The position numbers and the translations under genes were made by a program. Under the pieces are notes generated by a model that was not told where the DNA came from, ran no database searches, and was given only the letters and a program-made list of their open reading frames with translations. A stretch of DNA of 64,000 nucleotides from Haloplasma contractile (GTDB lineage Bacteria; Bacillota_I; Bacilli_A; Haloplasmatales; Haloplasmataceae), in contig JAENYC010000002.1 of the NCBI GenBank assembly GCA_016841945.1, positions 100,275-164,274 of the forward strand, read 5' to 3'. Shown in pieces: positions 31,817 to 63,890 of the stretch. Each line of letters starts with the position of its first letter. The first letter of the stretch is position 1.

Positions 31817-32430
31817 TTGTATTAGGTGGCATGATAGGTGTTGGAAAGACCACTATGTCAAATTTACTTGCAAAATCTTTTAATAGTAAGGTATATACTG
31901 AAGAGGTAGAAAACAATCCTATTCTACCGCTTTTCTACACTGCATCTAAAAAAGAAATTGAAAAGTATCGGTATCCCTTCTTACTACAATTATATTTTTT
32001 GAATTCACGATTTAAAAAGATGAAAGAAGCGCAAAAAGATTTATTTAGTATAGTCGACCGCTCTATCTATGAAGATTGGTATTTTGCGAAAGTGAATAAA
32101 GATTTAGGAAGAATAAATCATTTGGAATTTAATATTTATGAAGATTTGTTTTCTAATTTGATTGAGGAAATAAAATCACCTGATTTAATGGTGTATCTAA
32201 CGGCTTCTTTTGAGACCATTATGGAACATATTAATAAAAGAGGAAGAGCGTATGAAAAAGAAAAAAAATTGATTGAATATTTTAGAATTCTTTGGAAAGA
32301 CTATGATGATTGGTTAAAAAATCATTATATATATAGTGATGTTATCATTTTAGATATGGATCGATTTGATGTCATCAATAAAAAAGATGACCAAATAAAG
32401 GTCATCAAAATGATAAAAGATAAATTATAA
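31813..32430 (+). CDS. deoxynucleoside kinase-family protein (dNK/dCK/dGK fold)
   Basis: P-loop GGMIGVGKTT. ENP motif (EVENNPILPLFY). DRS-like (IVDRSIYED). 4-nt overlap with the BCCT gene. Confidence 0.65.
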   Translation: MIVLGGMIGVGKTTMSNLLAKSFNSKVYTEEVENNPILPLFYTASKKEIEKYRYPFLLQLYFLNSRFKKMKEAQKDLFSIVDRSIYEDWYFAKVNKDLGRINHLEFNIYEDLFSNLIEEIKSPDLMVYLTASFETIMEHINKRGRAYEKEKKLIEYFRILWKDYDDWLKNHYIYSDVIILDMDRFDVINKKDDQIKVIKMIKDKL

Positions 32431-39277: not shown

Positions 39278-40524
39278 TGAATCAATATGATGTGGTTGTT
39301 ATAGGTGGAGGTGCTGGAGGAATGTCAAGTGCACTTGGTGCCTATCAAAATGGGGCTAAGAAGGTCCTTCTTGTTGAGCGTGATATAGAGTTAGGTGGTA
39401 TTCTTCAACAGTGTATTCATAATGGTTTTGGTCTTCATCATTATAAAGAAGAATTAACGGGTCCTGCTTATGCTGAAAGGCTAAAACAAGAATTAATGGA
39501 TACAGAAATTGATATTAAACTACAGACCACTGTATTAAAAATCACAAAAGATAAAGAAGTACATATGATGAATGAAAAAGATGGATATCAAGTCATTCAA
39601 GCGAAAGCCATTATAGCTTCAAATGGTTGTAGAGAGCGTACAAGACATCAAATTGATATTCCAGGAAAACGACTATCCGGTATCATGACGGCAGGCCTTG
39701 CACAACGCTATTTAAACATCGATGGATATTTGGTTGGTAAAAAAGTACTTATTTTAGGTTCTGGTGATATCGGATTAATCATGGCAAGACGAATGACATT
39801 AGAAGGGGCAAAAGTTTTAGGTGTTGCTGAAATTATGCCTTACTCAAATGGTTTAAATAGAAATATTGTACAATGTCTACACGATTATGATATTCCCCTC
39901 TATTTAAGTCATACAATAGCAAAAGTAAGTGGTAATGACAGATTAGAACAAGTTACCCTATCAGAAGTGGATGAAAAATTTCAAATGAAAGAAGGGACGA
40001 ATAAAACATTTGAAGTGGATACCTTGTTATTATCTGTCGGTTTAATCCCTGACAATAAATTATTAACCGATATATCGGTTAAAATGAATCCAATCACAAA
40101 TGGCGCTTATGTTAATGACAAGTATCAAACGAATATAGAAGGTATCTTTGCATGTGGAAACTCACTCCATGTTCATGACTTAGTTGATTATGTTTCAGAA
40201 GAAAGTTATGAAGCGGGAAAAAATGCTGCCAACTACGTGCTTCATCAAAATAAAGTAAAACAAAATATCATTAATGTTAAATCATCTGATCATATTCATT
40301 ATGTGATTCCAAATCAAATTATGTTAGATAATAAAAATGTTGCCTTTAAATTCAGAGTAACAAAACCAATGGAGAAAGCTTTAATTATGATTAAACAAGG
40401 TAATAAAATTGTGATAGAAATAAAGAAGAGACATTTATTACCGGCAGAAATGGAAAATGTTAAAGTGAATAAAAAAGTTTTTAAATATGATGATGATATC
40501 TCTATTGAAGTGAAAGGAGTATGA
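39274..40524 (+). CDS. NAD(P)/FAD-dependent pyridine-nucleotide-disulfide-family oxidoreductase (second subunit of the three-gene G3P dehydrogenase set)
   Basis: Two Rossmann motifs: YDVVVIGGGAGG and KKVLILGSGDIG. 4-nt overlap with the upstream gene. Confidence 0.7.
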   Translation: MMNQYDVVVIGGGAGGMSSALGAYQNGAKKVLLVERDIELGGILQQCIHNGFGLHHYKEELTGPAYAERLKQELMDTEIDIKLQTTVLKITKDKEVHMMNEKDGYQVIQAKAIIASNGCRERTRHQIDIPGKRLSGIMTAGLAQRYLNIDGYLVGKKVLILGSGDIGLIMARRMTLEGAKVLGVAEIMPYSNGLNRNIVQCLHDYDIPLYLSHTIAKVSGNDRLEQVTLSEVDEKFQMKEGTNKTFEVDTLLLSVGLIPDNKLLTDISVKMNPITNGAYVNDKYQTNIEGIFACGNSLHVHDLVDYVSEESYEAGKNAANYVLHQNKVKQNIINVKSSDHIHYVIPNQIMLDNKNVAFKFRVTKPMEKALIMIKQGNKIVIEIKKRHLLPAEMENVKVNKKVFKYDDDISIEVKGV

Positions 40525-58937: not shown

Positions 58938-58959
58938 AAACTAAATGAAAAGGAGTGAA

Positions 58960-59295
58960 ATGATGAGTGATTATCATGAAGATGTAAAATTACTAGATGA
59001 AAAAACGAAGGATTGTGCAAGAGCACTTAATAGTTTAAAAGAAGAAGTTGAAGCGGTTGATTGGTATCATCAACGGATGAGTGCATCGAAAAATGAAAAT
59101 TTAATCAAAATATTAAAGCATAATCGCGATGAAGAAATTGAACATGCCTGTATGATGATAGAATGGCTAAGACGTAATATGGATGGATGGGATGAACAAT
59201 TAAAAACATTCTTATTTAAGAATGAACCCATTACAGAAATTGAGGATGAGATGGAAGAAGAGTGCGATTCATTAAAAATTGGAAATTTAAAGTAA
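58960..59295 (+). CDS. encapsulated ferritin-like protein (EncFtn) cargo with C-terminal encapsulin-targeting peptide
   Basis: AGGAG SD before ATG 58960/58963 (track start 58945). EEVEAVDWYHQR...HNRDEEIEHACMMIEWLRRN matches the EncFtn di-iron motifs. The C-terminal DSLKIGNLK matches the family-1 cargo-loading peptide consensus (SLxIGxLK). Confidence 0.85.
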   Translation: MMSDYHEDVKLLDEKTKDCARALNSLKEEVEAVDWYHQRMSASKNENLIKILKHNRDEEIEHACMMIEWLRRNMDGWDEQLKTFLFKNEPITEIEDEMEEECDSLKIGNLK

Positions 59296-59299
59296 AGGA

Positions 59300-60097
59300 G
59301 TGATTGATATTTTAAATAGAAAAAATGCCCCTATAAGCCAAGAGGTATGGGAGGAAATTGATGAAAGAGCAAAAGAAGTCATCAAGAGTTATTTATCAGC
59401 AAGAAAAACTCTACATGTTGTAGGTCCTAAAGGATGGGATTATACAGCAGTTGAAGAAGGTAGATTAGGAAAAATAAGTGATTATAATGATCATGTTAAA
59501 TATGCGAGTTTTTTAGTTAAACCGTTAGTAGAGGCTAGAGTTGAGTTTGAAATGGACCGTTTTGAACTAGATAATTTAAGAAGAGGTGCTAAGGATATTG
59601 ATTATAAACCTCTTGAAGATGCGGTAAAAGAAATGGCTTTATTTGAAGAAAATGTGATTTACAAAGGATTAGAAGAAGGCAAGATTAACGGTTTATTAAA
59701 CGATTCAGATAAGAAAGTTATCAAATTAAGTCAAGAATCAGAAGAAATCGTAGATGCGATATCTGAAGGTATGATTCAATTAAGAGAAGCATTTGTGGAT
59801 AAACCTTATACCCTTGTTGTTGGAAGTAAGGTCTGGAAATTAATCAATAGACATATAAAAGGCACTGACCTATTGAAAAAGATAGAAAACATATTAGAAT
59901 CAAAAGTTGTCTATAGTCATGTATTAGAGGGTGCATTATTATTACCATATGACCATGAAGATTTAGAACTCACAATAGGACAAGATTTTACGATTGATTA
60001 TCAAGGTCATGACCATGAAAAGATTAAATTTTATGTAACTGAATCATTTACATATAGAACGTTAGATAAAGATATTATCATACAATATAATTTATAA
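59300..60097 (+). CDS. family 1 encapsulin shell protein (linocin M18-like, HK97 fold)
   Basis: Colinear with T. maritima encapsulin: NAPISQEVWEEIDERAKEV / APLTEKQWQEIDNRAREI; GPKGWDY / GPYGWEY; LTIGQDFTIDYQGHDHEKIKFYVTESFTY / [29 protein letters not shown]. Start codon is uncertain (GTG 59300 overlaps the RBS). Confidence 0.85.
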   Translation: MIDILNRKNAPISQEVWEEIDERAKEVIKSYLSARKTLHVVGPKGWDYTAVEEGRLGKISDYNDHVKYASFLVKPLVEARVEFEMDRFELDNLRRGAKDIDYKPLEDAVKEMALFEENVIYKGLEEGKINGLLNDSDKKVIKLSQESEEIVDAISEGMIQLREAFVDKPYTLVVGSKVWKLINRHIKGTDLLKKIENILESKVVYSHVLEGALLLPYDHEDLELTIGQDFTIDYQGHDHEKIKFYVTESFTYRTLDKDIIIQYNL

Positions 60098-60187: not shown

Positions 60188-61207
60188 ATGAACAGTTTAC
60201 ATGAAAAGTTAAATCAAATAAAAAGTAAGATGAAACAGTGTGATTTTTCTAATCAATCTGTTTCATGCAAGGTGTTAGAAACCATAGTAAAAATAGCGGG
60301 AACAGCTCCATCAGGTGCAAATTGTCAACCTTGGACTTATGTTTTAGTTAAAGATGAAGAAATCATTCAGTCGATAAGTTCTGAGTCATTATATATAGTC
60401 GTATTATTTAAACAAAACTATGGTGTAGGAAAGAATAAAGAAATCATTAAGCATTATTATGCCCATGAATCCGCTTGTTTATCTGGGGGAATGTTTTTAG
60501 CGGGACTTCATTATGCGAGTATTGATTATAAATTACTGCCTATCGATCCTTCGTTAAATGGTATATTGAAAAGACCTAAACATGAAAAACCTGTTTTATG
60601 CCTATCAATAAAAGGTAATAATACAAAACAAGGTAAATTAGAACCAGAACTAGATGAGTATTATGAATTGATGAGGAAAAGAAGAAGTATAAGACGTTTT
60701 CAACCACAATCCTTTGATAAAAACATCATTCATCAAATGATTGAGCTTGTTCACACTTTGATAAAAGATGATGGATATCGTTTTGTTGTTGTGGATGAAT
60801 CTAGTAAAAAGGAAAAAATAAGAAATGCGAGTGAACAGAATGAAAAAAGACTATATAAAGAATTAATATCTGATGAATGGAGAAAAGCTTTAAAACCATT
60901 AGGTACTAATTGGGAAAAACCACATTTAACAGAAGCACCTTATTTAATTGTTGTGTTTAGTAAAAGTCGTTCTTCTAAAACAATGGCAGGAATAGCTTCA
61001 GGTATGCTTATTCAAATACTTCATTATATAGGACTCAGTACCTTGACTTATACACCGAGTCCTATGAAATTTTTAAATGAGATATTAGATATTTCTTTAG
61101 AGGAAAAACCATTAATGGTACTCCCTGTAGGTTTTAAAGATGAAACTTTCCAATCCCTTAATATAAAGAGAAAAAAATTAAAAGAATTTTATATAAAACA
61201 ATGGTAA
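60188..61207 (+). CDS. nitroreductase-superfamily protein with two tandem or permuted nitroreductase-like halves
   Basis: First half has AGTAPSGANCQPWTYVLV (the APSxxNxQPW motif). Second half starts with the canonical MRKRRSIRRF motif, but its QPW region is degenerate. Confidence 0.55.
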   Translation: MNSLHEKLNQIKSKMKQCDFSNQSVSCKVLETIVKIAGTAPSGANCQPWTYVLVKDEEIIQSISSESLYIVVLFKQNYGVGKNKEIIKHYYAHESACLSGGMFLAGLHYASIDYKLLPIDPSLNGILKRPKHEKPVLCLSIKGNNTKQGKLEPELDEYYELMRKRRSIRRFQPQSFDKNIIHQMIELVHTLIKDDGYRFVVVDESSKKEKIRNASEQNEKRLYKELISDEWRKALKPLGTNWEKPHLTEAPYLIVVFSKSRSSKTMAGIASGMLIQILHYIGLSTLTYTPSPMKFLNEILDISLEEKPLMVLPVGFKDETFQSLNIKRKKLKEFYIKQW

Positions 61208-61809
61208 TTAATGAAGTTTAGTAGTAGTTATATAGTGTCATTGAAATTTATGAAAATCCAATGTTATAATTGACCAGTTTATAGGACATTTTACTTAAAA
61301 TACAGTACATTGGTCATAGTAACGATAATATATTTGCATCCTTCGTATCATTAAAGGGAATATTAAGTTTTAAAGAATTTAAAAGATTTAAAGGTGAATT
61401 TGGTGTTATCTTATATCAGCTATTTAAAATAGTCATTTCTATTTCCCTCTCATTTCACAGACTGAAATAAGTATACCAAAAAAGATAACCTAATTGATTA
61501 TGTTATTACCAAAATTGGTAGTTTTCTCACAATCATTTTTGGTTATCTTTATATTATCATTAATATCTGTGGTTTTATATTAAAAATATAAGGACAAATA
61601 CTTTTTAATTTTAATATAGATTTTTATAATATTAATAATTATTCTACTTAAAAATAGCTATGAAAAAATCAATGATAGAATATAGCATCAATGCAATACC
61701 ACTCCCGATTAGATATATATAGTCGTATAATTAGTGGTGTTTATAGTGTTTAACGAATATATTATCATTAAAATTTAGAGAGTATTTAACGGTGTTTTTA
61801 ATAAACGAA

Positions 61810-62058
61810 TCAATTAATTTTATCAGTGTTTATCTTGATAAATCCTTCAATAACTTTTGGAGTTCTTTTAGATGTTATAACATATTTTATTTCAATAGGC
61901 AATTTATTAAAAATTAAATATGTTGGTAAAAATATATTGGTATATTGCTTAATATAACTTACATTATATTTTATAATTTCAAATTCATCATCCTCGAAAA
62001 TATCATAATTGAAAGTAGAGGCGAAATGGTTGTTGAATTTATTTTTTTCTTGTTCCAA
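61810..62058 (-). CDS. hypothetical protein (82 aa)
   Basis: ORF only. Sits in an AT-rich island, divergent from the GIY-YIG gene. Confidence 0.3.
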   Translation of the reverse strand: MEQEKNKFNNHFASTFNYDIFEDDEFEIIKYNVSYIKQYTNIFLPTYLIFNKLPIEIKYVITSKRTPKVIEGFIKINTDKIN

Positions 62059-62135
62059 TTTGCTATCATAGTTATTTATCGATACGTAATTAGTTTGGTA
62101 GAGTTATTATTAAATATAAAAATAAATACCAAAAT

Positions 62136-62609
62136 ATGGTTCGTAATGCATCGAAGTTGATTAACGAATTAGAAGTTTTAGAAATTTTACCTAATATGTA
62201 TACAGGAGAGGATTTTAATGGATACGAAAATGTTAATTTATCTTATGATCAACTAAAAATTGCTTTAGAAAGGAATAAGACATATATTAACGCATTCAAA
62301 AATCAGAAAGCAGTTTATCTTATTACTGACAAAAATACTGGGAATCTTTATGTTGGTTCTGCAACCTCTAATAATGGTATGCTCTTATCAAGATGGATGG
62401 ATTATATAAAAAGCGGACATGGAAAAAATAAAGCATTTATAGATATTATTTATAATCCAATTAAAGGGTTTGATTATATTAAGAAATATTTTCAATATTC
62501 TATATTAGAAAATTATAATCCAAAGGTTAGTGATGAATATATTCTTAAAAGAGAATCTCATTGGAAAAGAGTATTATTAAGTAGAAATATGGGCTATAAT
62601 AAAAATTAA
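62136..62609 (+). CDS. GIY-YIG nuclease-domain protein
   Basis: KAVYLITDKNTGNLYVGSATSNNGMLLSRWMDY matches the GIY-YIG core (VY.I.....G.LYIGSA....RW). No clear SD. Confidence 0.55.
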   Translation: MVRNASKLINELEVLEILPNMYTGEDFNGYENVNLSYDQLKIALERNKTYINAFKNQKAVYLITDKNTGNLYVGSATSNNGMLLSRWMDYIKSGHGKNKAFIDIIYNPIKGFDYIKKYFQYSILENYNPKVSDEYILKRESHWKRVLLSRNMGYNKN

Positions 62610-62948: not shown

Positions 62949-62977
62949 TTGACAATGTATACTTTATTAAATATACT
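62949..62977 (+). promoter_or_regulatory. sigma-A-like promoter TTGACA-17-TATACT driving the toxI-like repeat array and toxN-like gene
   Basis: Read directly. Predicted TSS is about 22 nt before the first repeat. Confidence 0.55.
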
Positions 62978-63006
62978 AATAGTAGATACTAATTTATTGG
63001 AATTTT

Positions 63007-63117
63007 CGGGTGAATCTCCACCCTAAAGAGAGAACGATATATACGGGTGAATCTCCACCCTGAAGAGAGAACGATATATACGGGTGAATCTCCACCCTAA
63101 AGAGAGAACGATAATTA
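63007..63117 (+). ncRNA. toxI/antiQ-like type III antitoxin RNA: three tandem 37-nt direct repeats (CGGGTGAATCTCCACCCTAAAGAGAGAACGATATATA)
   Basis: Copies at 63007-63043, 63044-63080 (1 mismatch, A>G) and 63081-63117 (3' end diverged). Each copy contains the hairpin GGGTG-aatctc-CACCC. Located between a promoter and a terminator directly upstream of a ToxN/AbiQ-like ORF. Confidence 0.75.
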
Positions 63118-63124
63118 CTGAAAA

Positions 63125-63160
63125 CTCCTAATAGAATAAATTAGGGGTTTTCTTTTTTTA
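63125..63160 (+). terminator. rho-independent terminator (CTCCTAAT-agaataa-ATTAGGGG + TTTTCTTTTTTT) between repeat array and toxin ORF
   Basis: Read directly. Same arrangement as toxIN and abiQ loci, where a terminator limits read-through into the toxin gene. Confidence 0.65.
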
Positions 63161-63172
63161 TAGGAGGGTAAA

Positions 63173-63805
63173 GTGGATATAAAATTTTATGAGGTAAGCA
63201 ATGATTATATTAAATATTTTAAAAAATATGATAGGAATGTTAGGTTGAATGAAGGGGAAAATTATCAGCATAATAGAAAATACATTGGTGTAATATTAGA
63301 GATAAATTCATTAAAGTATTTTGCACCTCTGAGTTCACCTAAGGGGTCAGACTATAAAGATGATACTAAAACGATTATTAGAAAGAGTAAAATATTTATA
63401 CATAGAATTGTTTATGGGACTCAATTACTTGCAACAGTTCGTATTAGTAATATGATACCAGTTCCAGATCGTTATATAAATCTTTATGATTTAGATAATG
63501 AACCTGATAGGAAATATAAAAAACTATTGTTGAAACAATTTCGAGTAATAAAAAGAGAATTTTCCGAAATTAAAAAATCAGCACTCAGATTATATACTCA
63601 AAAAAATAAAGGTGAAAAACATTCGTATTTACGCTCAACTATAGATTTTAAGAAAATTGAACAAAAGAGTTCAGATTATATAAAAAAATTAGAAGATTTT
63701 GAATCGCATGTTGGAGTAATTGAAACATCTTCGATCACTAAAGAATCAAATAAATCTAAAAATAATTCAGTGGATGTAGAGAGTGTATTAAAAAAGGATG
63801 CTTAG
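63173..63805 (+). CDS. ToxN/AbiQ-family type III toxin (sequence-specific endoribonuclease; abortive-infection protein)
   Basis: AGGAGGG SD, then GTG 63173. N-terminus MDIKFYEVSNDYIKYFKKYDRNV...NRKYIGVILEINSLKYFAPLSSPKG parallels the AbiQ/ToxN N-terminus (MKFY..S.KYIEYLK.FD.KV...IGIVLEI..HKYLAPL(T/S)SPK). 210 aa, with about 35 extra C-terminal residues relative to AbiQ/ToxN. Confidence 0.75.
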   Translation: MDIKFYEVSNDYIKYFKKYDRNVRLNEGENYQHNRKYIGVILEINSLKYFAPLSSPKGSDYKDDTKTIIRKSKIFIHRIVYGTQLLATVRISNMIPVPDRYINLYDLDNEPDRKYKKLLLKQFRVIKREFSEIKKSALRLYTQKNKGEKHSYLRSTIDFKKIEQKSSDYIKKLEDFESHVGVIETSSITKESNKSKNNSVDVESVLKKDA

Positions 63806-63842
63806 TTTTATAGATAGGTAACATAATTATATCTAACAAAAT

Positions 63843-63890
63843 AGCACAAGAAGTCTATTGCGATTTTACTTGTGCTTTTTATTGTTTTTT
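63843..63890 (+). terminator. hairpin AGCACAAG-18 nt-CTTGTGCT + TTTTTATTGTTTTTT after the toxin gene
   Basis: Read directly. Confidence 0.5.

Follow-up and report, generated by a model that had tools for sequence, protein, structure and literature searches.

A probable type III toxin-antitoxin locus of the ToxIN/AbiQ family with three ToxI-like repeats and AA-less internal linkers

The closest described systems belong to the ToxIN family. ToxIN_Pa (Pectobacterium atrosepticum pECA1039; 2XDB/2XDD) and ToxIN_Ec (7D8O) share one order of elements, in which a promoter is followed by repeats, a terminator, and the toxin gene. ToxIN_Pa is carried on a small enterobacterial plasmid, and its ToxI consists of a 36-nt repeat present in 5.6 copies. 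Two other members come from low-GC Gram-positive hosts and have about three repeats each: AbiQ/antiQ (Lactococcus lactis pSRQ900, 35 nt × 2.9 copies, 4GLK) and ToxIN_Bt (B. thuringiensis pAW63, 34 nt × 3.1 copies, 4ATO; RF02519). CptIN (Eubacterium rectale/Coprococcus catus) and TenpIN likewise place RNA repeats upstream of a terminator and an endoribonuclease gene and have a pseudoknotted antitoxin.

We found the promoter-repeats-terminator-toxin order in the window, by which we mean the whole 64,000-nt stretch of DNA that was analyzed. The elements are as follows.

62949–62977, forward strand: predicted sigma-70-like promoter (TTGACA, 17 nt, TATACT), with 11 of 12 consensus matches, the best in the region
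63002–63118, forward strand: toxI-like antitoxin array, three 37-nt units with a conserved junction on each side
63003–63039, 63040–63076, and 63077–63113, forward strand: predicted processed units, with boundaries placed from the four junctions
63120–63159, forward strand: intrinsic terminator in the gap between array and toxin gene, a 13-pair stem (63120–63152) followed by a T-run
63162–63167, forward strand: ribosome-binding site AGGAGG, with the GTG start codon 5 nt downstream
63173–63805, forward strand: toxN/abiQ-family endoribonuclease gene, 210 aa, GTG start
63839–63885, forward strand: probable toxin-gene terminator (AAATAGCACAAG ... CTTGTGCTTTTT), inverted repeat I14 followed by a T-run

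The toxin gene assigns the locus to its family. Its product matches the Pfam profile ToxN_toxin (PF13958) at 9.4e-36 (123.8 bits against a cutoff of 25), and its best match in the defence libraries is the PADLOC AbiQ model (1.6e-41). Matches in the PDB are to ToxN_Pa (3.7e-22), ToxN_Ec (4.5e-22), ToxN_Bt (1.2e-15), and AbiQ (4e-13), so that the toxins of ToxIN_Pa and ToxIN_Ec are homologous to this one at about 4e-22. Residues Y31 and S54-S55-P56-K57 align with Y29 and T52-S53-P54-K55 of ToxN_Pa, in which we take Y29, T52-S53, and K55 to be catalytic. The active site is Tyr/Thr-Ser/Lys in ToxN_Pa and ToxN_Ec, whereas the central pair here is Ser-Ser; AbiQ tolerates an exchange of Ser and Thr at this position (PMC5086642). 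The final ~40 residues form a C-terminal extension that is absent from ToxN_Pa and from the other homologues, which cover ~80% of the protein. The closest toxins that we found, at 34 to 50% identity, come from metagenome-assembled genomes of gut and rumen Clostridia (loci L001 to L051). No relative above 50% identity was found in representative genomes, JGI metagenomes, or a set of 5.8 billion proteins, a toxin search of IMG/VR found nothing, and no NCBIfam model reaches the protein. The context appears chromosomal and low-GC Firmicute-like, in contrast to the plasmid setting of ToxIN_Pa, and a megablast search of positions 40000 to 64000 against plasmids and phages found nothing.

The sequence features named by Blower et al. 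2012 (PMC3401426) are all present, namely a toxin of this family with its catalytic residues, a preceding terminator, and tandem repeats upstream. The locus is very likely a toxin-antitoxin module of type III from the ToxIN/AbiQ family, with the repeats as its RNA antitoxin. The sequence-only reading had taken the repeats for the RNA antitoxin to a ToxN-family toxin, and the profile and structure matches bear this out. It had also likened the units to both ToxI and CptI. The first likeness stands: the unit is collinear with ToxI and the toxin is ToxN/AbiQ. The second does not, since CptI has a different fold: its units are longer, its pseudoknot is duplex throughout with a single base in loop 1, and its complex is a heterotetramer (PMC5086642). 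We also set aside assignment to CptIN or TenpIN, as the only Pfam and PADLOC matches of the toxin are ToxN_toxin and AbiQ, in libraries that may be without CptN or TenpN models. No Rfam family matches the array, even with E values up to 10, and RF02519 is not reached at its gathering threshold (50 bits). Of the known arrays RF02519 recovers that of B. thuringiensis alone (59.2 bits), failing on ToxI_Pa and antiQ too; the model is too narrow to be informative as a test here. The only subthreshold Rfam match in the region, to the PyrG leader (E = 2.3), falls on the terminator hairpin and was dismissed as a chance resemblance.

The promoter holds the same position relative to the array as in homologous loci, and transcription is predicted to start near 62984, giving a leader of ~20 nt. 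The stem of the intrinsic terminator has a folding energy of −15.3 kcal/mol (z = −4.3), and none of 200 shuffles was as good. A terminator between repeats and toxin gene is a standard feature of the family. The earlier claim of a strong terminator 7 nt downstream of the repeats was accurate for the G+C-rich core (CTCC...GGGG), which begins 7 nt past 63117; the extended stem begins 2 nt past it. The array ends 1 to 2 nt before the terminator stem, and the terminator ends 13 nt before the start codon. The hairpin at 63839–63885 has few G-C pairs and was missed by the terminator scan.

Tandem Repeats Finder reports an array at 63007–63113 with a period of 37, 2.9 copies, 97% matches, and a score of 207. 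In-register comparison widens the repeat to 63002–63118, as three 43-nt copies with 100, 93, and 91% identity, and the copy number of the 37-nt unit is 2.9 to 3.2. Both analyses confirm the 37-nt repeat units that had been described. Across the 64-kb window the 26-nt core is found at three places, all of them in the array, against zero expected from 100 shuffles. Copy 2 carries the single A>G change that the sequence-only reading had seen in the purine stretch. It lies at 63062, unit position 18, which is variable across 41 units of the family (U in 20, A in 15, C in 5, G in 1), and it leaves the conserved A19 and A20 intact. The diverged 3′ end of copy 3 was also as described: it reads GATAATTAC in place of GATATATAC, with 63114–63115 swapped (UA>AU), and its final three bases, TAC, are again identical to those of the other copies.

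It had been claimed that each unit contains a 5-bp hairpin followed by a single-stranded purine-rich stretch. The hairpin, GGGUG-AAUCUC-CACCC, is present, and the nested minimum-free-energy structure of every unit (−8.4 kcal/mol) contains nothing else, although taken alone the hairpin beats shuffled sequences only by a small margin (z about −1.6 to −2.0). By comparison with ToxI it is stem 1 of a pseudoknot, and the elements of the first unit can be placed as follows.

63008–63023, forward strand: stem 1, from the fold and collinearity with ToxI_Pa, recurring at +37 and +74; G1-G2-G3-U4 (63008–63011) pairs with A13-C14-C15-C16 (63020–63023)
63015–63033, forward strand: pseudoknot stem 2, from covariation and the two-layer fold, recurring at +37 and +74; U8-C9-U10-C11 (63015–63018, in the hairpin loop) pairs with G23-A24-G25-A26 (63030–63033, in the purine stretch)
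63024–63029, forward strand: loop 2 (U17 A18 A19 A20 G21 A22), from the family alignment
63034–63044, forward strand: single-stranded linker between pseudoknots 1 and 2, from homology with ToxI overhangs and comparison of linkers and junctions

There may be a fifth stem 1 pair, G5 (63012) with C12 (63019). A two-layer constrained ViennaRNA fold gives the crossing UCUC:GAGA helix in the window unit, with 3 of 2,000 shuffles as good, and it also recovers the crystal stem 2 of ToxI_Pa. Two registers of this helix are nearly equal in energy in that fold, with GAGA at 21 to 24 (−1.8 kcal/mol) or at 23 to 26 (−1.6 kcal/mol). Folding of a single repeat, which had been suggested as a check, yields the crossing helix but does not fix its register; thermodynamics alone cannot pick between the two, and the family alignment alone favors 23 to 26.

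We built that alignment with MAFFT, on sequence only, from 41 distinct units of 21 loci. The loci whose toxins are 34 to 50% identical carry arrays of 37 to 39 nt or single units at the same position. Every cell of stem 2 is paired (100%), and three of its four positions show compensatory changes (UA31/CG4/GC2, CG30/UA11, CG29/UA11/UG1, and CG41), in counts that take in paralogous units within arrays and related loci and so are not independent events. Eight stem 2 variants occur in the set, of which seven are fully Watson-Crick and one has a single G-U wobble. The central two G-C pairs of stem 1 are invariant (41/41). Over the whole pseudoknot 86% of cells are paired versus 77% in shuffles, and there are 36 double-change cells versus 9.9; in both cases none of 500 shuffles reached the observed value. 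Control helices slid along the alignment were 34 to 51% paired, and the register at G21-A24, equal in energy but slid by −2, was disfavored, at 47%. Covariation over homologous loci had been named as a check on the hairpin and repeats. Drawn here from distant loci, none of which carries the very same repeat type, it shows stem 2 covarying and the central pairs of the hairpin held constant. The converse outcome, loss of the hairpin or of the repeat periodicity in homologous loci, was not seen for the hairpin, and 37- to 39-nt arrays recur, but many of the loci have a single unit.

As a further comparison, we built a covariance model, R1, from the 38 non-window units (sequence plus stem 2). The window units align to it in the expected register and score 14 to 15 bits (E = 0.013 to 0.019 in a local 801-nt search with filters off). 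In a 71-kb search they were unreported, while ToxI_Pa scored 23.3 bits and a chance coding site 15.9, and R1 did not separate the window units clearly from chance. The latter, at 32145–32185 on the reverse strand, lies in coding sequence and is without stem 2, and we treated it as a chance match.

The purine-rich stretch UAAAGAGAGA consists of loop 2 (UAAAGA) and the 3′ strand of stem 2 (GAGA), the latter paired with UCUC. We reject the "single-stranded" label because stem 2 is paired in every cell (100%) of the 41 homologous units; the label was an interpretation, not an observation, and the comparative evidence is against it. Most likely, each unit folds as a ToxI-family pseudoknot and not as a plain hairpin with a loose purine tail.

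An alternative is that the repeats work at the DNA level, as an operator or iteron, or that the locus is decaying and has lost both active antitoxin and active toxin. Local decay does occur, as the region at 61208–62135 is riddled with stop codons and a neighboring GIY-YIG gene looks truncated. However, the reading frame of the toxin is unbroken and retains the catalytic motif, a strong ribosome-binding site precedes it, the repeats match one another at 97%, and promoter, repeats, terminator, and gene stand in canonical order. Covariation that preserves pairing marks an RNA structure rather than a protein-binding DNA site. We give this reading almost no credence.

The comparison with the crystallized ToxI_Pa is direct. 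The window unit is collinear with it over positions 0 to 26 without indels and has the same H-type topology and Group I loop lengths. Of the 11 nucleotides named as conserved by PMC8860590, nine are kept (G2, G3, G5, A6, C14, C15, A19, A20, and G21), and C11 and G23 are also shared with ToxI_Pa. All three copies have the nucleotides of the tertiary contacts (PMC8860590), which are the central G-C pairs, G5, A6, A19, A20, and the interdigitated G ahead of stem 2b. By analogy, A19 and A20 are expected to make A-minor contacts with stem 1, and G21 is expected to be the interdigitated guanine; across the 41 units A20 occurs in 40, A19 in 32, and G21 in 33. Group I antitoxins have crossing paired regions of 3 to 4 bp, and here stem 1 has 4 to 5 bp and stem 2 has 4. 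Loops G5-A6-A7 (3 nt), C12 (1 nt), and U17-A22 (6 nt) and the 37-nt unit fall within the Group I limits of 3 to 4 nt for loop 1a-2a, 1 to 2 nt for 2a-1b, at most 7 nt for 1b-2b, and 31 to 46 nt for the unit (PMC3401426).

There are also differences. Stem 2 is UUGC/GCAG in ToxI_Pa and UCUC/GAGA in the window, and pair 1-16 is A-U in ToxI_Pa but G-C here. In place of the noncanonical U12-U22 pair, part of the U:U:G triplet in the solved structures, the window has C12/A22, a combination found only in the window and in one other unit (L033a), while 25 of the 41 family units have U/U. Conservation of the U:U:G triplet has been reported for E. coli clusters only (PMC8860590), and the U12-U22 pair may not define the wider family. 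The C12/A22 core may differ in detail, for example through five Watson-Crick pairs in stem 1 stacked on stem 2. In a stronger version of this idea, the unit would be a structurally distinct, orthogonal ToxI with a five-pair stem 1 (G1-G5/C12-C16) stacked directly on stem 2 and neither a 2a-1b loop nor a U:U:G triplet, or with stem 2 in the register G21-A24 and a 4-nt loop, UAAA. Several observations point that way: the window unit is the only one of the 41 with G-C at both 1-16 and 5-12, positions 12 and 22 are C/A and not U/U, positions 5 and 12 behave as a pair in the family (GU 28, GC 8, UA 2, other 3), and the two registers are isoenergetic. Against it, stem 2 slid by −2 is only 47% paired in the alignment, as noted above, and G5, A6, A19, A20, and G21, which have tertiary roles in the solved structures, are all kept, which favors the standard core. 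We therefore consider the variant core unlikely, though less so than the other alternatives, and keep the standard ToxI pseudoknot as the preferred structure.

The linker between pseudoknots reads A27-C28-G29-A30-U31-A32 and then U33-A34-U35-A36-C0; it recurs at 63071–63081, with a terminal version at 63108–63118. By analogy with the solved complexes, its ends would serve as 3′ and 5′ tails for toxin binding. Characterized ToxN-family enzymes cut in the linker between pseudoknots and leave a 3′-terminal A (PMC5086642, PMC8860590), and in all solved systems the A-rich cut site lies outside the pseudoknot (PMC8860590, PMC5086642). The four junctions here are GGAA^UUUUC (leader), GAUA^UAUAC (twice), and GAUA^AUUAC (terminal), so that position 32 is always A and position 33 is A or U. 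From this comparison cleavage would most likely occur after A32 (GAUA^UAUAC), in the AU-rich linker and not in the purine tract, with predicted cuts at 63002|3, 63039|40, 63076|77, and 63113|14. The divergence of copy 3, which had been suggested to define a processing boundary, starts at this predicted processing site, in agreement with that suggestion.

The known cut motifs are AA^AU, GAA^AU, A^AAAA, and A^AAA. We found no AA dinucleotide in the internal linkers ACGAUAUAUAC, which thus have no A-rich cleavage motif; of the four junctions, only that with the leader (GGAAU) and the terminal one (GAUAAU) contain AA. Five of the 41 family units have a linker without AA. An A^U cut would appear to be without precedent among characterized systems. 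The sequence-only reading had likened the unit, with its purine stretch, to units that ToxN-family nucleases cut at A-rich sites; the solved systems cut in the linker, here ACGAUAUAUAC.

Taken as a full model, that reading has a 5-bp hairpin and a single-stranded purine tail, cut in its A-rich part (UAAAG or GAGAGAA), with unit boundaries inside the purine stretch. It fits the nested fold, which shows the hairpin alone, and it would account for a cut between adenines, as made by the characterized ToxN-family enzymes (PMC5086642): the sole AAA run of the unit is U17-A18-A19-A20, and the internal linker is without AA. However, the pairing of the loop with GAGA in every cell, covarying at three of four positions across the 41 units, contradicts a single-stranded tail. 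The stretch also aligns column by column with loop 2 and stem 2 of ToxI_Pa, where A19 and A20 make A-minor contacts and the cut is outside the pseudoknot. In addition, the UGAAG of copy 2 would abolish the AAA site in one of three units, and the cut would split the strands of stem 2, with an intramolecular alternative that requires a zero-length third loop and is sterically implausible. Cleavage in the purine tract is improbable, and we retain cleavage in the linker.

Linkers also distinguish the window from its relatives. That of ToxI_Pa is CUAGAAAUUC, whereas the internal junctions of the window (ACGAUAUAUAC) are without the AA^AU or GAA^AU motif. The antiQ and ToxI_Bt units share the layout GGNG...NCC...AG-N-stem 2 with the window, with stem 2 read from their own records as UCCA/UGGA in antiQ and ACCU/AGGU in ToxI_Bt, but loop 2 of the window unit is two nucleotides longer, and their linkers (GAUAAAAUU and GCUAAAAAAUU) are A-rich, with cleavage at A^AAA and A^AAAA (PMC5086642). 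The gut and rumen Clostridia loci have units of 37 to 39 nt with the same core, and stem 2 is also UCUC/GAGA in L002b, L019a, L031a/b, and L018a. However, in most of them stem 1 is AGGUG/UACCA and positions 1 and 16 form an A-A mismatch, positions 12 and 22 are U/U, and the linker is AAAAU or AAAC; many are single-unit loci, and the model trained on them gives the window units only the 14 to 15 bits reported above. Copy 3 of the window and the final copy of L001, a locus with a toxin 45% identical, share the terminal tail AACGAUAAUU.

We propose the following working model. It starts from the locus architecture, toxin family, catalytic motif, ToxI collinearity, and stem 2 covariation observed here; processing, ring assembly, and abortive infection are carried over from the family, and the cut site comes from the junction comparison only. 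One promoter would drive a short leader, the three toxI-like repeats, the leaky terminator, and the toxin gene, so that 62949–63805 would be a complete operon. Because the terminator is presumably leaky and lies between the array and the toxin gene, most transcripts would contain the antitoxin only, with a smaller share extending into the toxin gene. Each unit would fold as an H-type pseudoknot (stem 1, G1-U4/A13-C16; stem 2, U8-C11/G23-A26) whose A-rich loop 2, at U17-A22, lies in the stem 1 minor groove, and the linker ACGAUA|UAUAC would stay single-stranded. The toxin nuclease would cut the precursor once per linker, after A32, and would stay on the 3′ and 5′ tails of the 37-nt units in a closed, inactive protein-RNA ring, as in solved ToxIN. 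When antitoxin runs short, as a phage infects the cell or the element is lost, the unbound toxin would cleave RNA of both cell and phage.

Judged by its sequence, the locus would be a divergent member of a known family, with a toxin at most 50% identical to any found. That the toxin cuts A^U in the alternating AUAUAUA tract and pairs with a variant C12/A22 core, possibly with a five-pair stem 1 on stem 2, as an orthogonal pair, is a tentative suggestion that we regard as possible but doubtful. The main value of the analysis is corrective: the unit is a ToxI-type pseudoknot, and its purine tract is structural and not the substrate. In the comparative set, covariation explicitly supports the ToxI pseudoknot in loci of uncultured Clostridia. 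Many natural loci carry one antitoxin unit, and searches based on repeats would therefore miss them. The AA-less linker, together with C/A in place of U-U, makes the locus a test case for the coevolution of toxin specificity and antitoxin recognition, and a candidate orthogonal RNA-protein pair.

The repeats belong to a locus on the forward strand, in which we identified the following elements around them:

62949-62977, forward strand: sigma-70-like promoter (TTGACA, 17 nt, TATACT), 11/12 matches, the region's best such site
63120-63152, forward strand: terminator, 13 pairs plus a T-run, -15.3 kcal/mol, z = -4.3
63162-63167, forward strand: AGGAGG, 3' of the terminator
63173-63805, forward strand: toxin open reading frame, GTG start, 210 aa, 3' of the AGGAGG

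Tandem Repeats Finder placed the array at 63007-63113 (period 37, 2.9 copies, 97% matches, score 207), and in-register comparison showed similarity reaching out to 63002-63118, where three copies of 43 nt have 100, 93, and 91% identity. Within the 64-kb window, the 26-nt repeat core GGGTGAATCTCCACCCTAAAGAGAGA is confined to the array, which contains three copies of it, against 0 expected by chance. Copy 2 carries a single A>G at 63062, and copy 3 reads GATAATTAC where the other copies read GATATATAC. The nested minimum-free-energy structure of a unit contained nothing but a GGGUG/CACCC hairpin (-8.4 kcal/mol), which by itself was only modestly more stable than shuffled sequences (z, about -1.6 to -2.0). 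None of 200 shuffles equaled the terminator's stability. An earlier sequence-only reading had described the period, the two copy differences, the hairpin, and a strong terminator, and the sequence agrees with it on each.

The toxin matched Pfam ToxN_toxin over the whole model length (9.4e-36), PADLOC AbiQ (1.6e-41), and the four solved family members, ToxN_Pa (3.7e-22), ToxN_Ec (4.5e-22), ToxN_Bt (1.2e-15), and AbiQ (4e-13); in NCBIfam, no model reached it. Its Y31 and S54-S55-P-K57 align on Y29 and T52-S53-P-K55 of ToxN_Pa, the residues that line the scissile phosphate. A Ser/Thr swap at that active-site position is tolerated in AbiQ (PMC5086642). The C terminus of the toxin is extended by a hydrophilic segment some 40 residues long (about 170-210; window 63680-63805; …DFESHVGVIETSSITKESNKSKNNSVDVESVLKKDA) that is covered neither by nearly all homologues (about 80% query coverage) nor by the solved structures. 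The exact protein occurs once among 5.8 billion clusters, where the next best is 50% identical, and no closer relative was found in representative genomes, IMG/VR, or JGI metagenomes. Distant relatives (34-50% identity) come mostly from Clostridia MAGs and carry 37-39-nt arrays or single units at the equivalent position.

The sequence-only reading took each unit to be a hairpin followed by a purine-rich single-stranded stretch. In solved ToxI, a 5' overhang (-3 to 0) precedes a pseudoknot core (1-25) and a 3' overhang (26-32) (PMC8860590). There, stem 1 is built of four canonical pairs, the two central G-C pairs being conserved; G5 forms the turn of loop 1, A6 touches the toxin, and stem 1 receives A-minor contacts from A19 and A20. 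Among the four pairs of stem 2 is the noncanonical U12-U22, which G21 completes to a U:U:G triplet (PMC8860590). Reference arrays were taken from their own sequence records: ToxI_Pa (AGGTGATTTGCTACCTTTAAGTGCAGCTAGAAATTC, 36 nt x 5.6), ToxI_Bt (34 nt x 3.1), and antiQ (GGAGTATCCAAGCCATAGTTGGAATTGATAAAATT, 35 nt x 2.9). In a MAFFT alignment, the window unit matched ToxI_Pa without gaps over positions 0 to 26 (position 0 being the C at 63007). Its bases are as follows:

Positions 1-18: G1 G2 G3 U4 G5 A6 A7 U8 C9 U10 C11 C12 A13 C14 C15 C16 U17 A18
Positions 19-36: A19 A20 G21 A22 G23 A24 G25 A26 A27 C28 G29 A30 U31 A32 U33 A34 U35 A36

G5, A6, A19, A20, and G21 are kept in the ToxI register. Because the unit is collinear with ToxI_Pa, the purine stretch is read not as a single-stranded tail but as loop 2 (UAAAGA) followed by GAGA, the stem 2 strand on the 3' side. 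Predicted stem 1 pairs 1-4 with 13-16, predicted stem 2 comprises U8-A26, C9-G25, U10-A24, and C11-G23, and the linker ACGAUAUAUAC is the sole long segment predicted to be unpaired. The copy 2 A>G falls at position 18, a variable loop site (U 20, A 15, C 5, G 1), leaving A19 and A20 untouched.

The ToxI pairs were then tallied in a set of 41 distinct units (3 window copies and 38 units from 20 other loci), which had been cut by periodicity and a GG...CC anchor only and aligned on sequence alone. Stem 2 gave the following counts:

Pair 8-26: UA 31, CG 4, GC 2
Pair 9-25: CG 30, UA 11
Pair 10-24: CG 29, UA 11, UG 1
Pair 11-23: CG 41

In this covariation analysis, a check proposed in the sequence-only reading, stem 2 cells were 100% paired, with compensating changes, which speaks against that reading's model of a hairpin with a single-stranded tail. 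Counted over same-array units and related loci, which are not independent events, double-change cells numbered 36 against 9.9 expected, and the whole pseudoknot was 86.1% paired against 77.2% in shuffles; neither value was reached in 500 shuffles, a control that ignores relatedness. Sturdier evidence comes from the number of distinct helix types and from the slid controls, in which the 3' partners were shifted by 1-3 columns and pairing fell to 34-51%. The 41 units hold eight stem 2 variants, seven fully Watson-Crick and UCUC/GGGA with one G-U wobble; they include UCCC/GGGA, UCUC/GAGA, UUCC/GGAA, CUCC/GGAG, and GUUC/GAAC. A further three, UUGC/GCAG, ACCU/AGGU, and UCCA/UGGA, come from the reference systems. 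The two central G-C pairs of stem 1 are invariant in the 41 units. Pair 4-13 covaries (UA 20, UG 6, CG 5; unpaired in 10 units), and pair 1-16 is Watson-Crick in six units only, three of them the window copies (G-C).

ViennaRNA cannot predict pseudoknots. Therefore, we used a two-layer fold, in which a unit was folded, its paired bases were blocked, and it was refolded. This regained the crystal stem 2 of ToxI_Pa and, for the window unit, gave stem 1 and a crossing UCUC:GAGA helix; 3 of 2,000 shuffles had an equally stable crossing fold. Stem 2 could sit in either of two registers along GAGAGA, which are isoenergetic (-1.8 and -1.6 kcal/mol), and only the family alignment points to 23-26 as the likely one.

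A covariance model built from the 38 nonwindow units scored the window units at 14-15 bits, significant only in local search, and a chance coding-region site scored the same; Rfam RF02519 did not match the window array. Because sequence-model scores were unhelpful, the assignment as ToxN-family antitoxin repeats, made in the sequence-only reading and upheld here, rests on architecture, toxin homology, collinearity, and pairing. Among the reference systems on pECA1039, pAW63, and pSRQ900 (L055, L056, and L057), RF02519 ("ToxI," 34 positions) recognizes only the Bacillus thuringiensis array (59.2 bits), missing antiQ and the founding ToxI_Pa array at the gathering threshold, whereas the model from Clostridia units finds ToxI_Pa (23.3 bits). 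The Rfam family is far narrower than its name implies. Across the whole window (1-64000), nothing in Rfam reached the gathering score (no tRNA, riboswitch, or other known RNA).

The window unit departs from its family at 12/22, where it has C/A and the majority has U/U (25/41 units, 23 of these with G5 and G21). It is also the only one of the 41 units with G-C at both 1-16 and 5-12, making stem 1 unusually strong. Five Watson-Crick pairs may form in stem 1 and stack directly on stem 2, in which case the U:U:G triplet would be absent. No AA dinucleotide occurs in the internal linkers, a trait of only 5/41 units, whereas every characterized enzyme cuts between adenines (AA^AU, GAA^AU, A^AAAA, A^AAA) (PMC5086642, PMC8860590).

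Cleavage in the solved systems occurs 5-7 nt before G2, so that the product has A as its 3' end; processed ToxI_Pa ends at position 32. The window junctions, with the candidate cut marked, are as follows:

Leader/unit 1: GGAA^UUUUC
Unit 1/unit 2: GAUA^UAUAC
Unit 2/unit 3: GAUA^UAUAC
Unit 3/terminator: GAUA^AUUAC

All four have A at position 32 and A or U at position 33. We tentatively place the cut after A32, at 63002|3, 63039|40, 63076|77, and 63113|14, although our confidence in this falls a little short of even. Such a cut would yield three 37-nt units, each bearing tails of 5 nt (5') and 6 nt (3'). The cut would then lie in the linker and not, as had been implied, in the purine stretch, but the suggestion that copy 3 marks a processing boundary fits, since its divergence begins at the inferred cut. 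The terminal tail AACGAUAAUU also ends the last unit of L001, a homologous locus with a toxin only 45% identical. The last-repeat 3' tails there are near-identical (AACGAUAAUUUCAAG versus AACGAUAAUUACUG; L001 1416-1460 versus window 63103-63125), and the internal linkers of L001 (AAUUUUAAAUCA, ACCAUCAAAUCA) are quite different.

More than 20 homologous loci from gut Clostridia MAGs and metagenomes have a single ToxI unit, AAAAUCAGGUGAACCCUACCAAUAAGUGGGAGCUGUAAAAUCA, and no tandem array (L004, L007-L017, L022, L024, L032, L034, L035, L037, L038, L041-L045, and L051), about 100 nt upstream of the toxin gene. An AAAAUCA junction flanks these units on both sides, and a conserved palindrome, AATAGATATTTAATATCTATTT, precedes them directly after the -10 box. 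Such loci would escape published searches because the criteria demand tandem repeats (PMC3401426). L029 (1221-1500) and L030, with a toxin (P0007) 49% identical to ours, have units of about 50 nt with the same GGNG...NCC start, a candidate stem 2 (UUCA/UGAA), and a much longer variable loop between; they resemble the "Group II" or insertion-bearing ToxI variants (PMC3401426) and were excluded from the covariation alignment. At L053, whose toxin is 27% identical, the upstream repeats (1-110) look unrelated: a 34-nt unit, TTAATAGAGGTTTGCGAAGCCTACCAAAATCGCA, is present in at least three copies and has a GCGAAGC-type hairpin and not the GGNG...NCC core.

The closest toxin relatives (48-49%; L026 1014-2440, L027/L028 3-1089 and 2066-3491) lie among TrbC, TrbL_2, and PrgI conjugation genes and therefore on conjugative elements, whereas the setting of the window locus looks chromosomal. 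Upstream are a histidine kinase, an EncFtn-encapsulin pair, and a nitroreductase fusion; the GC content of the surroundings is 23-32%, and the plasmid and phage collections yielded no near match. The encapsulated-ferritin gene (EncFtn-like, 2e-38) is followed directly by the shell gene (Linocin_M18, 2.5e-80) at 58945-60097 on the forward strand, a predicted nanocompartment operon, and then by a gene for a 339-aa protein with two nitroreductase-type regions (60188-61207, forward strand). Immediately upstream of the toxIN locus we found one further gene:

62136-62609, forward strand: GIY-YIG protein, 157 aa, PADLOC UzuA (Uzume defense), 1.2e-38, model positions 135-278 of 278

It covers only the C-terminal half of the model, and the 0.9 kb 5' of it (61208-62135) is AT rich (about 23% GC) with many stop codons in that frame. 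It looks like a truncated or decayed defense gene, and its place beside toxIN is a faint hint of a defense neighborhood.

Judged from its sequence, then, the locus is a divergent toxIN of a well-known kind and a previously undescribed member. By homology, most transcripts from the one promoter would end at the terminator and supply antitoxin, and some would read through as toxin mRNA (PMC3401426). Once it had processed the array, the toxin would be caught by the unit RNAs in an inactive ring (PMC5086642, PMC8860590), from which phage infection or loss of the element would free it.
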